Virus record (IMG/VR): IMGVR_UViG_2554235125_000005
Location: 1-29,539 of that record
DNA length: 29,539 nucleotides
Reading direction: 5' to 3' (one strand)
Source: a virus
Taxonomy: Duplodnaviria; Heunggongvirae; Uroviricota; Caudoviricetes
Shown: positions 23,086-28,467 of the stretch, in pieces
Layout of the letters: each line of letters starts with the position of its first letter
Numbering within the stretch: position 1 is the first letter of the stretch
The notes under the pieces: model-generated
The model's database searches: none
Told to the model about the DNA's origin: nothing
The model's input: the letters and a program-made list of their open reading frames with translations, nothing else
Translations under genes and position numbers: made by a program

Positions 23086-25308
23086 TTACTCTGATATTGG
23101 TTTTGATGCTTCAGCTATCGCAGCAACACGATTAAGGATTTTCCTGGCTTTAGCCTCATGCGATGGTGCTGTGGAAAATATTTCTCCTTTGGCCGTTCCG
23201 CGTAGCCATTTACCATCAAAACAACTTTTACCACCGGCCATCAAGTGCAGAGCTTCGCCCCGGCTGATATTAATGCCGGTTGTCAGATGTATCTCTTCGA
23301 TAGTTTTCGCTATAGCTGCGTTTTGCTCATCCGTTCCGTGTATGAATTTTCGCCGTGCTGCTGGCTTTTGCTTCCTGAGTCGGTTGGTTAGCTCTCGTCT
23401 TTCGCGTCGACTCAGGGGCTTTGTCAAATCCAGTACCGGTGGATCGTTTTCGCTTCCCGTACAGTTATTGACAGAACTCCGAGGGACGGCTTTGCCGTCC
23501 TGAAGGTCAACGGCCAAATCAACAGCATGCTTCGGAACAATCTTCCACTGAGTGAGTCGGGTTAATATCGGGCTCCCTGCACCTATGGAGGAATCGTAGA
23601 CCCCCTTAATACATACCGTTTCCTCACCGTACTGATTAAGCTCGGTACGCGGTTCATACAGTGTGCGCACCTGTAAATCATCGCGACGGACAAACGGTCC
23701 ACCCTGCGCATTAACATACCCAGCCCAGTCACCAGCGTCGGCGGCATCATGGACGGCGGCAAACTCAACGCTCAGTCCGTGCGCGGTTTCGGTATCAGCG
23801 AGGCGACGCAACTCACGGTAAACCGTCACCGGCGCACCACCGATAAACTGAAACTGACGGATGTGCCAGCGCGAAGCCCATGCTGAAACGGCGGGGGCTG
23901 TCTCTTTCAGCAGTTCACCACTTTCATCATCGGTTTCACCATCGAGAGCATAACCGTCGATATTTTTTGAGATGTATTTAGCAACATAGCCGGTTGCGCT
24001 GCCTTTCTCCGGGTCAATGGACTCGGCGTGGAAACGTGCTTTTTTGGCCTTATCGCTTTTCAGTTCGTGGCGGTCTTCTTTACACGCGTATTTACGTACG
24101 ATGGAGCGAACATATTCAACATCTTCCGGCAGCATGAACATCAGCATGTGCCAGTGTGGAGTACCGTCGTGATGGGGCTCGGCAACACGAATACCGAAAA
24201 TACGGACATCTTCCCGATGCAGTTTGGCACGGATACGCGCCCAGATACCGGTTAGATAGTTTTGCGTGTCAGCCGGGCTGGCACCGCTCCATTTGCTGTT
24301 ACGGTAACCGGCTTTAGTCGTGGCGTGATATTTCGACGGCGCGGTCAGAGTGTAAAACTCACCGACATAACCGAGCTCATTACAGATGTTTTCAAACCCA
24401 CGGATGCGAGTCATGAGCTCACAGCGGCGAATCGCAGGGTTAGCAACTGAGCCATCATATTTTTCAATCAGGCTGATACGGTTGCCGTCTTCGTCTTCGA
24501 GATCCAGACCTTTGAGAAATTCACGAGTTCGGCGCTTTTGTTCACGCCAGTCAGTCACGCAGTTTTTACTCGCATAGGTGTTTTTTTTCTTGCTGACGTT
24601 GCCGACTGCAATTTGCAGGTGTTCGCGCCACGTAGCTGCAACTCGGCGCAAACGACCACGCCACCACCCATCGTTAAACATCTTGGCGATAGCCGGTGCG
24701 ATTTCATCCGCGCCGACATATTTTTTTGCAACCCGATCCCAATGGGGTGGGATAACGTTGAATTGGAGGGAAATAAAGCCAGCACGATTATACCAGGTGT
24801 ACAGCGTTTTAAGCTCGCCGAATCCGTGGTCATTAATGTTGGCAAGTTCACCACGAATGAAATCAGCAATATCGGCGGCCAACAGGTCAACATCAGCGCG
24901 CGACATATCCGGGAGGCGGTTATATCGGGCGACCATATTAACCATGCGTGACGCCAGATATTGCATAAGCTGGGTATCAAAATGACTTCCAAAAACAGAG
25001 GTTGATACCTTGCTGTTGATACCCGCGCATTCGTATTTTTTTGCGACCAATTCAAGACGCGGCAATGCCTTTTTGCAGAAGCTGATCAAAAAGGCATTGG
25101 CTCGTTGAATACCCTGATTTTGCTCCAGCACTGCAGCAGTGCGATAAACATCTAACCGCACGCAGTCGGGCTGGAGAGAAAGCACCTTTTTCGCATGCAG
25201 CAAAGCCGCGAACATACGGTCGCGGCGATGCTGTTGCTCATAAGTAAGGTATGGGCTGGAGATTGCCGACCGTGGGACGTTCCACGGATAAGCGAATTGA
25301 ACAGCCAA
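23086..25308 (-). CDS. A: Replication initiation protein A (rolling-circle nickase)
   Basis: 740 aa, near the P2 gpA size as I recall it. Contains HWHMLMF and GYVAKYISK motifs resembling the metal-binding and catalytic-tyrosine motifs of rolling-circle initiators. Confidence 0.85.
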   Translation of the reverse strand: MAVQFAYPWNVPRSAISSPYLTYEQQHRRDRMFAALLHAKKVLSLQPDCVRLDVYRTAAVLEQNQGIQRANAFLISFCKKALPRLELVAKKYECAGINSKVSTSVFGSHFDTQLMQYLASRMVNMVARYNRLPDMSRADVDLLAADIADFIRGELANINDHGFGELKTLYTWYNRAGFISLQFNVIPPHWDRVAKKYVGADEIAPAIAKMFNDGWWRGRLRRVAATWREHLQIAVGNVSKKKNTYASKNCVTDWREQKRRTREFLKGLDLEDEDGNRISLIEKYDGSVANPAIRRCELMTRIRGFENICNELGYVGEFYTLTAPSKYHATTKAGYRNSKWSGASPADTQNYLTGIWARIRAKLHREDVRIFGIRVAEPHHDGTPHWHMLMFMLPEDVEYVRSIVRKYACKEDRHELKSDKAKKARFHAESIDPEKGSATGYVAKYISKNIDGYALDGETDDESGELLKETAPAVSAWASRWHIRQFQFIGGAPVTVYRELRRLADTETAHGLSVEFAAVHDAADAGDWAGYVNAQGGPFVRRDDLQVRTLYEPRTELNQYGEETVCIKGVYDSSIGAGSPILTRLTQWKIVPKHAVDLAVDLQDGKAVPRSSVNNCTGSENDPPVLDLTKPLSRRERRELTNRLRKQKPAARRKFIHGTDEQNAAIAKTIEEIHLTTGINISRGEALHLMAGGKSCFDGKWLRGTAKGEIFSTAPSHEAKARKILNRVAAIAEASKPISE

Positions 25309-26249: not shown

Positions 26250-26759
26250 TCATACCAAACCAAATGTTGCGCCGATGCCGGTCATGGTATCAACCACGCT
26301 CGACATTGCCGGATTAGCCTGTAGACGCGCCTGTAACGCCAGCGCCGACAGAGACAACATGCGGATGCCTGCATTAACACTCTCAACCATGCTGTGTTTG
26401 CGGTCAGAGGTCATACGTTCATTTGATACCGCACCGCTCGCCAGTTCGCCGAGTTCACTCATTGCGCGCATCACATAAGACTGCAATTTCTCTTTAGCCA
26501 GCTCATTAACCGGCACGCATGGCAGACAATGTATCTGCGCCAGAAAGCCATCAACGAGGGTTGAGTCTTCGGTCAGGTCAGTCAGCAGCCACAATTCAGG
26601 CGGTGTGAATTGGTGAGGCTGTTCCGGGTTGAGCTTGTTACGTAACGTTTGAACATTCATACCCGCACGCTCGGCCAGCTTCGCCATGTTGTGACGCTGC
26701 GCAAAAGCCCGGCACGCTTCGTCATAGTGAGGATGTTTGGAAATCTGAAAATCAAACAT
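26250..26759 (-). CDS. cII: CII-type lysogeny establishment regulator (186 CII-like)
   Basis: Start refined to MFDFQISKHPHYDEACRAFAQRHNMAKLAERAGMNVQTLRNKL (169 aa) with GAGGGA Shine-Dalgarno. Resembles 186 CII in length and helix-turn-helix region, from memory. Confidence 0.75.
   Translation of the reverse strand: MFDFQISKHPHYDEACRAFAQRHNMAKLAERAGMNVQTLRNKLNPEQPHQFTPPELWLLTDLTEDSTLVDGFLAQIHCLPCVPVNELAKEKLQSYVMRAMSELGELASGAVSNERMTSDRKHSMVESVNAGIRMLSLSALALQARLQANPAMSSVVDTMTGIGATFGLV
26733..26759. promoter_or_regulatory. Candidate CII operator of an establishment promoter
   Basis: Perfect inverted heptamers ATGTTTG and CAAACAT with centres 20 bp apart, the geometry I recall for 186 CII half-sites. 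CATAAT lies about 25 bp to the right on the plus strand. Confidence 0.45.
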
Positions 26760-26791
26760 GGTTAAATTCCCTCTAACTTGCATAATCAAAT

Positions 26792-27163
26792 TCAGTTAAG
26801 AGCGATACGGTGGTCGATGTAGCGACAATCAATCGCTTGCTGGGTTAGTTTGTCGCGCCATGCTTTCACGTTTACGAGGGTGCGGCTTCGTTTTCCAGCC
26901 TCTTCCTTGTTGGAAAAGTCTTTAGTTGGAGCTTTGAGGAGGATTCCCTCATCAAGCCATTGCCAGACCAGACGCTCGCTTACACCGCGAGTGGCGGCAA
27001 AGTCTTTCACTGTCATTGTGTCTGACATAGCGGAGCGGATCATTGTCTGCAGAGCTGGCAGCATAGCGGTAACGATGGCATCAAACTGAGCCGGATCTAA
27101 CAGCACAGTTTGATTTTGTGAGTTTTGCGAATCATGCGTCGAGATTGATTTTGCATCTGACAT
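26792..27163 (-). CDS. Apl/Cox-like helix-turn-helix protein (excisionase / lytic-switch regulator candidate)
   Basis: 123-aa ORF, first gene of the early lytic operon, divergent from the repressor gene. AGGAGA Shine-Dalgarno. HTH-like VKDFAATRGVSERLVWQWLDEG. Longer than remembered Apl/Cox; the N-terminus is low-complexity. Confidence 0.5.
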   Translation of the reverse strand: MSDAKSISTHDSQNSQNQTVLLDPAQFDAIVTAMLPALQTMIRSAMSDTMTVKDFAATRGVSERLVWQWLDEGILLKAPTKDFSNKEEAGKRSRTLVNVKAWRDKLTQQAIDCRYIDHRIALN

Positions 27164-27240
27164 ATCGCATTATCTCCTGTTGATTGTAGTGAACTGCATT
27201 GATGTGCATCGTGGTTGATAATCATCACTTTAGTTCGCGA

Positions 27241-27270
27241 AATTTAATTTTGCAATGGCAAAAATTAATT
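27241..27270. promoter_or_regulatory. Candidate repressor operator overlapping a leftward early promoter
   Basis: Near-perfect AT-rich palindrome AATTTAATTTTGC-aatg-GCAAAAATTAATT just upstream of the repressor start. On the minus strand TTGCAA-17 nt-TAAAGT could be the early promoter. Confidence 0.35.
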
Positions 27271-27283
27271 TTGGTGGCAATAC

Positions 27284-28120
27284 ATGGCTAAATTTGGAGA
27301 TGGTGCGGCTCCGGCTATCGAAAGAATCCTTTCGGCTTATGGACTTAGCTCGCAAAAAGAACTTGGCGAAAAACTTGGTATTTATGCCAACAACATAAGC
27401 AGTTGGCTTGCCAGAGATAGCGTTCCGGGCAATGTATTTGTTGAATGTGCTATTGAAACGGGCGCAGATATCGGATGGTTAGTGACAGGGGAGCTTGCAA
27501 AAGCAAACTCTCCACGTGCGACCCTGAAGGGCAAAGAGCTTTATGAAAAGGTCATGGCTTCAGGTGGTAAACCTGTTCTGAGACGCATCCTTGATGCTTA
27601 CGGTTTTTCTATGCAAAAGGAGCTGGGTGATTTACTCGGTATATCATCTGGAACAATTAGCACATGGGTTCGGCGTGATTTTTTCCCAGGTGATGTAGTT
27701 GTTACTTGTGCTCTTGATACTGGTGTTTCGCTGGAATGGTTAGCAACCGGCAAGGGGCAAATGCGAACTAACAGAGAAATGGTCACATCAAGTTTTTCAA
27801 TTAAAAAATTTCGCCTTGAAGCGGGTGAGCTTAAGGACGCTGGCGAATGGCATCCAGACCCCTCGATGATACCCTCTGACTCAGAGGAGTTGATTTTTGT
27901 TGAAGGTGTTGGAGCCTCTTGGCTTGTCAACCGTTCTGCTTCGAACATAAGTAATGGGCGTTGGTTAATTGATATTGACGGCGCTCTTGATGTTTTTGAT
28001 GTAATTCGTCTTCCCGGCGGAAAAGTCAGGTTGTCAAATAAGTCTGCTGAGTTTGAATGCAGCATTACAGATATCACACCAGTAGGTGCTGTAATTTTCA
28101 CATTGGAAAAACACGTATAA
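27284..28120 (+). CDS. Immunity repressor, 186 CI-like, with tandemly duplicated N-terminal DNA-binding domain
   Basis: 278 aa. Two homologous about 60-aa segments (residues about 10-70 and 97-160, pattern I.RIL.AYG.S.QKELG..LGI....IS.W..RD..PG.V.V.CA..TG....WL.TG) followed by a C-terminal domain. No GDSM-type peptidase motif seen. Confidence 0.7.
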   Translation: MAKFGDGAAPAIERILSAYGLSSQKELGEKLGIYANNISSWLARDSVPGNVFVECAIETGADIGWLVTGELAKANSPRATLKGKELYEKVMASGGKPVLRRILDAYGFSMQKELGDLLGISSGTISTWVRRDFFPGDVVVTCALDTGVSLEWLATGKGQMRTNREMVTSSFSIKKFRLEAGELKDAGEWHPDPSMIPSDSEELIFVEGVGASWLVNRSASNISNGRWLIDIDGALDVFDVIRLPGGKVRLSNKSAEFECSITDITPVGAVIFTLEKHV

Positions 28121-28128
28121 GGGACATT

Positions 28129-28467
28129 ATGAAACGTAAGCTTTTTTTAGCTTTATTTCTTTCACTTTCTTTCGGTGCATCAGCCGCTGAAAAAACACAG
28201 GATTTAGACGGTGCTAAGTTTGGTGATGATTGGCCGTTAACTTTTGAAAAAGCTACGGTGTCTTGTGTTAATGGTAGATATGCCTTTGTGTACGACAAAG
28301 CAACAGATGACCGATACCCATTAAATGGGTTTGCTATTGATGGTGTAAAGTCTGGAAAGCTTGAGGGGAGCGATATTGATACTGTTTGGAAAGATAGCCC
28401 GGATTATGAAGGAGTAAAAATTCCTTTGGATCCCGTAATGGATGCTGCGACAGCACTTTGCGAATGA
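28129..28467 (+). CDS. Secreted/periplasmic protein of unknown function (lysogenic conversion candidate)
   Basis: Start refined to MKRKLFLALFLSLSFGASAAEK (112 aa): typical Sec signal peptide with AXA site, two Cys in the mature part, AAGGGA Shine-Dalgarno. Lies between repressor and integrase on the same strand. Confidence 0.55.
   Translation: MKRKLFLALFLSLSFGASAAEKTQDLDGAKFGDDWPLTFEKATVSCVNGRYAFVYDKATDDRYPLNGFAIDGVKSGKLEGSDIDTVWKDSPDYEGVKIPLDPVMDAATALCE

Follow-up and report, generated by a model that had tools for sequence, protein, structure and literature searches.

We found that the 27-bp element at positions 26733-26759 of the window (the whole stretch of 29,539 nucleotides of caudoviral DNA analysed here, IMG/VR record IMGVR_UViG_2554235125_000005) is, with high probability, the CII operator of this phage, and that together with the hexamer CATAAT at 26781-26786 it forms the orthologue of the establishment promoter pE of phage 186. 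CII binding, activation and a transcription start at this element are predicted by homology. The element is an orthologue, unannotated until now, of a thoroughly characterised regulatory site, so that its kind is already known. The identification of the promoter is correct but ordinary, the heptamers of 186 being matched letter for letter. The features of the region are listed in Table 1.

Table 1. Features of the switch region and its surroundings in the window.
Feature	Position	Strand	Remarks
740-aa ORF	23086-25308	-	Same place as the annotated replication gene of Midge and SEN1
cII, 169 aa	26250..26759	-	Pfam Phage_CP76 (PF06892), E 7e-48; PHROG CII-like activator
Promoter-distal CII half-site ATGTTTG	26733..26739	+	Reverse complement of cII codons 7-9 (..C AAA CAT); predicted centre at -58
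13-bp spacer GAAATCTGAAAAT between the half-sites	26740..26752	+	Direct reading; one base differs from 186
Promoter-proximal CII half-site CAAACAT	26753..26759	+	Reverse complement of the cII start ATG TTT G; predicted centre at -38
Nominal -35 ATGGTT	26758..26763	+	Putative; 2/6 matches to TTGACA, 17-bp spacer
cII ribosome-binding site GAGGG	26767..26771	-	Putative; 7 nt 5' to the ATG; complementary strand of the pE spacer
Predicted -10 hexamer CATAAT	26781..26786	+	-13 to -8 if +1 is 26794
Apl/Cox-position gene, 123 aa	26792..27163	-	SEN1/Midge type; PHROG 3554, E 4e-74
Predicted +1 (A) of the pE-like promoter	26794	+	26756 + 38 and 26736 + 58, from the -38/-58 register of 186
Candidate pL TTGATT-N17-CATTAT	27145-27173	+	Putative; invariant in seven related switch regions
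Putative early lytic promoter pR	27227..27255	-	Predicted -35 TTGCAA, 27255-27250; predicted -10 TAAAGT, 27232-27227
cI, 278 aa	27284..28120	+	Pfam Phage_CI_repr (two stretches) and Phage_CI_C; about 490 nt past the predicted +1
DUF2511 ORF	28057-28467	+	E 2.4e-16; apparent signal peptide; between cI and int
int-position ORF, 365 aa	28442-29539	+	Counterpart of the integrases annotated in Midge and SEN1

Direct reading of the plus strand of the window gave aGG ATGTTTG gaaatctgaaaat CAAACAT ggttaaattccctctaacttg CATAAT caaattc A gttaag. The two heptamers form a perfect inverted repeat with a spacing of 20 bp from centre to centre, exactly as the initial annotation had described them; the centres are at 26736 and 26756, and a 13-bp spacer separates the heptamers. 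The symmetry comprises 7 bp and does not extend to either side. The statement that the right half-site holds the cII start codon was likewise correct, CAAACAT being the reverse complement of ATG TTT G. The element had further been placed at the junction of apl and cII. It does adjoin the gene at the Apl position, whose stop codon is located 32 bp from cII, but both half-sites lie in cII codons 1-9 and outside this 32-bp gap, and the operator is therefore situated inside cII and not at the junction. The window had a single exact copy of the pattern ATGTTTG-N13-CAAACAT, and 100 dinucleotide-preserving shuffles gave none. When up to two mismatches were allowed, the operator remained the sole match in the window, with 0.12 matches expected. 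According to a hand estimate, about two 7-bp inverted repeats at one fixed spacing are expected per 29.5 kb by chance, indicating that the significance of the operator lies in its specific sequence and position and not in its symmetry.

The cII ORF starts at the ATG at 26759 on the minus strand, and its translation begins MFDFQISKHPHYDE. The encoded protein is 92% identical to CII of 186, and residues 1-89, which include the helix-turn-helix, differ solely by the conservative change I6V. As the two proteins are nearly identical in the DNA-binding region, the same DNA specificity is expected as for 186 CII. In the GenBank record of 186 (U32222), a protein_bind feature 'CII, activate pE' is annotated at 23435..23462 and the promoter pE at 23400..23462. 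The 186 sequence at the CII site, GGGGATGTTTGGAAACCTGAAAATCAAACATG, has ATGTTTG-N13-CAAACAT over the cII start. In a pairwise alignment of the window and 186, the heptamers and their spacing were identical and a single base of the spacer differed, while similarity collapsed directly after the cII ATG (26759/26760 boundary). In a megablast search of 26250-27300 against phage records, the match to 186 was confined to the cII part (91% identity). The half-site sequence and the 20-bp spacing that the initial annotation had given for the 186 operator were thus verified by both the U32222 annotation and the alignment. The comparison with the 186 establishment promoter as a whole held only for the operator: heptamers and spacing are identical, but the core promoter is not conserved, the predicted -10 being part of a SEN1/Midge-type immunity module.

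At the 186 pE, the inverted repeat, two helical turns apart, is centred at -38 and -58, and CII contacts the alpha and sigma subunits (PMC6593788). The promoter has a negligible basal activity of 5 LacZ units compared to 1140 units when induced, and DNA-bound CII is no block to polymerases coming from pR (PMC6593788). Counting 38 bp from 23438 gives 23400, and the end of the GenBank pE feature therefore agrees with the +1 of 186. From +1 at 23400 and the -38/-58 statement, TAAAGT would be the -10 of 186 pE. When the same register was applied to the window, the predicted +1 fell within the stop codon of the upstream Apl/Cox-like gene. The predicted transcript would be antisense to the whole of this gene and would read toward cI, the first gene it would express. 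CATAAT lies 21 nt past the right half-site and is oriented toward cI. The initial annotation had pointed out this hexamer just downstream on the plus strand, facing the repressor gene, and it is found there. Its proposed role as a promoter hexamer is backed, at the level of the sequence, by the 186 register and by the comparative data given below. In an alignment of seven switch regions, CATAAT was invariant within the SEN1/Midge group.

The proximal half-site overlaps the -35 position of the promoter, and the match of the nominal -35 to the consensus is poor, as would be expected for an activator-dependent promoter. Half-sites that the predicted +1 would centre at -38 and -58, a -10-like hexamer and the lack of a consensus -35 were all found in the sequence. 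A scan of 26500-27500 for consensus promoters and terminators reported nothing, a result that is uninformative for an activator-dependent promoter. As homology to 186 does not reach past the cII ATG into the core promoter, the predicted placement of -10 and +1 is based on spacing and on comparative enrichment. By analogy with 186, the register, the cognate CII and the cI-int target all support the earlier placement of a putative establishment promoter where 186 has one.

Likeness to 186 further comprises the position of the operator over cII codons 1-9, its orientation toward cI-int, the -10-like hexamer at the same 21-nt offset, the poor -35, and a pE transcript, predicted in the window, that is antisense to the gene at the Apl position and convergent with pR. 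In contrast, the -10 is CATAAT in the window and, as predicted, TAAAGT in 186; the adjoining gene encodes a 123-aa Cox-like protein instead of the 87-aa Apl; the leader upstream of cI measures about 490 nt compared to about 389 nt; and CI of the window has an extra N-terminal helix-turn-helix domain.

A one-genome-per-species scan yielded 75 loci with a CII relative (63-99% identity in the best tblastn segment). The loci were mostly from Enterobacteriaceae and related Enterobacterales, with a few records under other names such as Chryseobacterium, Vagococcus, Kocuria and Bacillota. ATGTTTG-N13-CAAACAT was present at the cII start in almost all 75 loci, and the length of the 13-bp spacer was invariant wherever the operator was found at that place. 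Excluded were L023, L050 and L073, for which the pattern search gave weak off-target matches only (the tblastn match misses the cII start in L023 and L073, and no site within four mismatches occurs there in L050), and L041, in which a perfect copy of the operator sits away from the cII start. Since the half-sites are coding sequence, part of this conservation reflects protein constraint. However, among 71 unique sequences the synonymous positions within the half-sites were frozen: Phe2 was encoded by TTT in 65 and by TTC in none, Lys8 by AAA in 64 and by AAG in none, and His9 by CAT in 61 and by CAC in 5. Ser7 was TCC in 58 of the 71. The adjacent codons, in contrast, were free, with all four codons used for Pro10, CAC (39) and CAT (27) for His11, and TTT (34) and TTC (35) for Phe19. 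Frozen third positions next to varying neighbours indicate a constraint beyond the protein requirement.

Past the operator, the loci continue into the 3' end of the adjoining Apl/Cox-type gene, and simple clustering sorted this downstream DNA into 16 sequence groups. At one and the same place, each of the 16 groups had CATAAT, CAAAAT, TAAAGT, AATAAT or a hexamer like these. Offsets 0-79 were scanned for -10-like hexamers, defined by at least 4/6 matches to TATAAT including A2 and T6. Such a hexamer was located at offset 21 (13 loci), 22 (5 loci) or 23 (2 loci) in 20 of the 21 representatives of the 16 groups, whereas nearly all other offsets had one in none or one of the loci. The hexamer at offset 21-23 was present whichever Apl/Cox-type gene adjoins. 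One modest gain of the comparison is this fixed distance between operator and -10 across many immunity modules.

In six loci (L027-L030, L045 and L051) the putative recognition helix of CII reads IKPHTLYNKL instead of MNVQTLRNKL, and both arms of the operator differ, giving ATGTGA[G/C]-N13-CTAACAT. The CII proteins of this subfamily are 69-78% identical to that of the window (best tblastn segment); the cII start is at 2501 in most of its loci and at 60 in L030. Paired changes of helix and half-sites would be expected of a protein and an operator that co-evolve, and the subfamily may represent a second CII specificity. The co-varying CII and operator could serve as an orthogonal activator-promoter pair. 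Natural operator variants include changes at the outermost base of the distal half-site; the 186 mutant KS54 (A-to-G) lies in that same half-site. In three further loci (L068, L069 and L076), the reading frame of the cII homologues is broken by frameshifts or stop codons shortly past the conserved operator region, which suggests decaying prophages that still keep the operator.

Three other explanations of the element were considered. Coding constraint on the N-terminus of CII (M-F-D ... S-K-H) would produce the heptamers if both half-sites were conserved merely as the coding sequence they are, with CATAAT as a chance AT-rich hexamer, and the roughly two chance repeats of the hand estimate would be in line with this. 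However, constraint on the protein leaves the frozen third positions of the half-sites beside varying adjacent codons unexplained, as well as the enrichment of a -10-like hexamer at one offset across many downstream contexts. In addition, in 186 an identical element carries the annotation of a CII site at pE, a CII-activated promoter (PMC6593788), and we regard coding constraint as an exceedingly improbable sole cause. A role at the RNA level, in which AUGUUUG and CAAACAU of the cII mRNA form a hairpin that hides the start codon and limits cII translation, appears very unlikely. The minimum free energy fold of the 31-nt segment is exactly a 7-bp stem with a 13-nt loop, and the symmetric changes in the variant subfamily would largely keep the pairing, but this hairpin is weak (-4.1 kcal/mol, z -1.55), with 19 of 200 shuffles folding as well. 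In a 66-nt context it was no better than shuffles (z +0.21), and no Rfam family was matched at a permissive threshold. The variant subfamily has a stem mismatch alongside its changed CII recognition helix, which points to protein recognition, and the corresponding 186 DNA carries a protein_bind annotation. A hairpin could coexist with the operator and is not needed to explain the element.

A different core promoter would leave CII binding in place and move the start elsewhere, for example to TAACTT at 26774-26779 or further downstream. The -10 of the window is a predicted one, as is that of 186, and the distance from the proximal half-site to the segment aligned with 186 is 2 bp longer in the window. 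On the other hand, +1 of 186 at 23400 and the -38/-58 centres put the -10 exactly at the offset of CATAAT, and the only recurrent -10-like hexamer is that at offset 21-23 (20 of 21), while none recurs at offset 14. We therefore consider a core other than CATAAT to be highly improbable.

If the element acts as the CII operator of a 186-type pE with CATAAT as its -10, the following course of events is predicted. After infection, the putative early lytic promoter pR would transcribe the Apl/Cox-like gene and then cII; pR would thus be the source of the cII mRNA and convergent with pE. CII would bind the two ATGTTTG half-sites, two helical turns apart, in its own first nine codons. Bound at -38/-58, with the proximal half-site over the poor -35, it would recruit RNA polymerase. 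Transcription would start at about 26794 and proceed rightward, antisense through the Apl/Cox-like gene, across pR and pL and into cI and int. The transcript would supply the first burst of repressor and integrase for the establishment of lysogeny.

Some loci combine the same Apl-type 3' ends with different types of CII. The 186-type Apl 3' end is joined to the variant CII in L027 and L029, and an Apl-type 3' end of group 3 is joined to CIIs 91% and 67% identical to that of the window. Together with the end of homology to 186 at the cII ATG, these combinations make the cII start look like a mosaic junction that separates the operator from the -10. We tentatively propose, as a reading that may well but need not hold, that pE is split across this junction, with the operator travelling with cII and the -10 and start belonging to an exchangeable int-cI-apl/cox module. 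If true, the split promoter would let immunity regions swap freely without breaking the lysogeny-establishment circuit.

The immunity module of the window is of the SEN1/Midge type and not that of 186. The genes are nevertheless arranged as in a 186-type switch. The minus strand carries, in this order, the Apl/Cox-position gene, cII, fil (PF10893) and further small ORFs. The protein at the Apl/Cox position gave a weak PHROG match to a Cox-like excisionase (E 1.6e-4), and its counterpart in Midge is annotated as 'transcriptional repressor Cox'. Only 23 aa of the helix-turn-helix match 186 Apl (E 5e-5). The gene had been called apl, which is right as to its position, but it is not orthologous to 186 Apl. 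The target of the predicted lysogenic operon is 186-type, with CI (Phage_CI_repr and Phage_CI_C), the DUF2511 ORF and the int-position ORF on the same strand. A P2-type switch consists of a small C repressor and Cox, with neither cII nor an establishment promoter, whereas cII, fil and a 186-type CI are present in the window. The initial annotation was thus right in favouring a 186-type over a P2-type switch.

CI of the window comprises 278 aa compared to 192 aa in 186, owing to two tandem Phage_CI_repr helix-turn-helix domains with 53% mutual identity over 64 aa (E 6e-26). In an alignment of CI from the window, Midge, SEN1 and 186, the first domain was variable and is missing from 186 CI, while the second domain and the C-terminal part were highly conserved. 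The first domain may set immunity specificity. The DUF2511 ORF also occurs in Midge, annotated as 'putative periplasmic protein', and in SEN1, whereas 186 has no gene at that place; it is probably an accessory gene expressed in lysogeny.

Across three probably heteroimmune variants, the -10 of the putative pR is kept as TAAAGT or TATAGT, with TTGCAA (window) or TTTACA (others) 17 bp away. The candidate pL and the putative pR face each other, with predicted starts about 40 bp apart, a layout which, as far as the sequence tells, is comparable to that of the convergent pR and pL of 186. A near-palindrome, AAATTTAATTTTGC-aatg-GCAAAAATTAATTT, occupies 27237-27273 on the plus strand and overlaps the putative pR -35. 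It is common only to the window and L019 (Enterobacter sp. MGH 24); Midge/L002 and SEN1/L014/L020 each have a different sequence at this place. The near-palindrome is probably an immunity-specific CI operator, and in that case there would be three heteroimmune types with one conserved cox-like/pE region.

The predicted pE -10 is itself bracketed by an inverted repeat, AACTTG-CATAAT-CAAATT (26775-26792, plus strand), which is perfect (CAAGTT) in SEN1. This repeat is identical among variants that have three different pR operator regions and that differ in the first helix-turn-helix domain of CI. In 186, the CI operator FR (ATTCAC-N5-GTGAAT), by which CI turns pE off after establishment, overlaps the pE -10 (U32222). 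As regards an FR-like CI operator at pE of the window, AACTTG-N6-CAAGTT was not enriched in the window (10 found, 12.2 expected). A repeat search returned TTGCA-N-CAAA and copies similar to AGCTTGCAAAA at pE, at pR and inside cI; in the window, AGCTTGCAAAA was not enriched (16 found, 11.9 expected). One might speculate that the conserved inverted repeat bracketing the predicted pE -10 is a target of CI, bound through the second, likewise conserved, of its two helix-turn-helix domains. Inverted repeats also occur around the -10 of 186-type loci (ATTCAC-N5-GTGAAT, FR) and of group 9 (AAGTTC-N8-GAACTT).

The CII system of lambda and that predicted for this phage share several traits. In both, the early lytic transcript yields an unstable activator whose target repeats surround the -35 of a weak promoter, and this promoter lies within or beside the activator gene, is antisense to the lytic transcript and primes expression of cI. 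The proteins, however, are unrelated (Pfam Phage_CP76 in the window, Phage_CII in lambda), and the target of lambda CII is a direct repeat, TTGC-N6-TTGC, in place of inverted heptamers at a 20-bp spacing. A functional analogy between lambda CII/pRE and the 186 system is drawn in PMC7708051.

The phages closest to the window are the Eganvirus members SEN1 (Salmonella) and Midge (Escherichia), with about 90% DNA identity in the region from cII to the Cox-like gene. The CII site and AACTTGCATAATCAA are the same as in the window, and the gene order int - DUF2511 - cI (about 280 aa) - cox-like - cII - fil is identical. In contrast, both phages depart from the window in the pR operator region and in the first helix-turn-helix domain of CI, and are probably heteroimmune to the window phage. 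Neither pE nor the CII site is annotated in the records of SEN1 and Midge. The lysogeny-establishment circuit can now be confidently annotated in SEN1/Midge-type Eganvirus prophages, from whose public records it is missing and which occur in E. coli and related Enterobacteriaceae. Among 5426 complete E. coli genomes, two had a region with 99.4% identity and 107 had weaker relatives.
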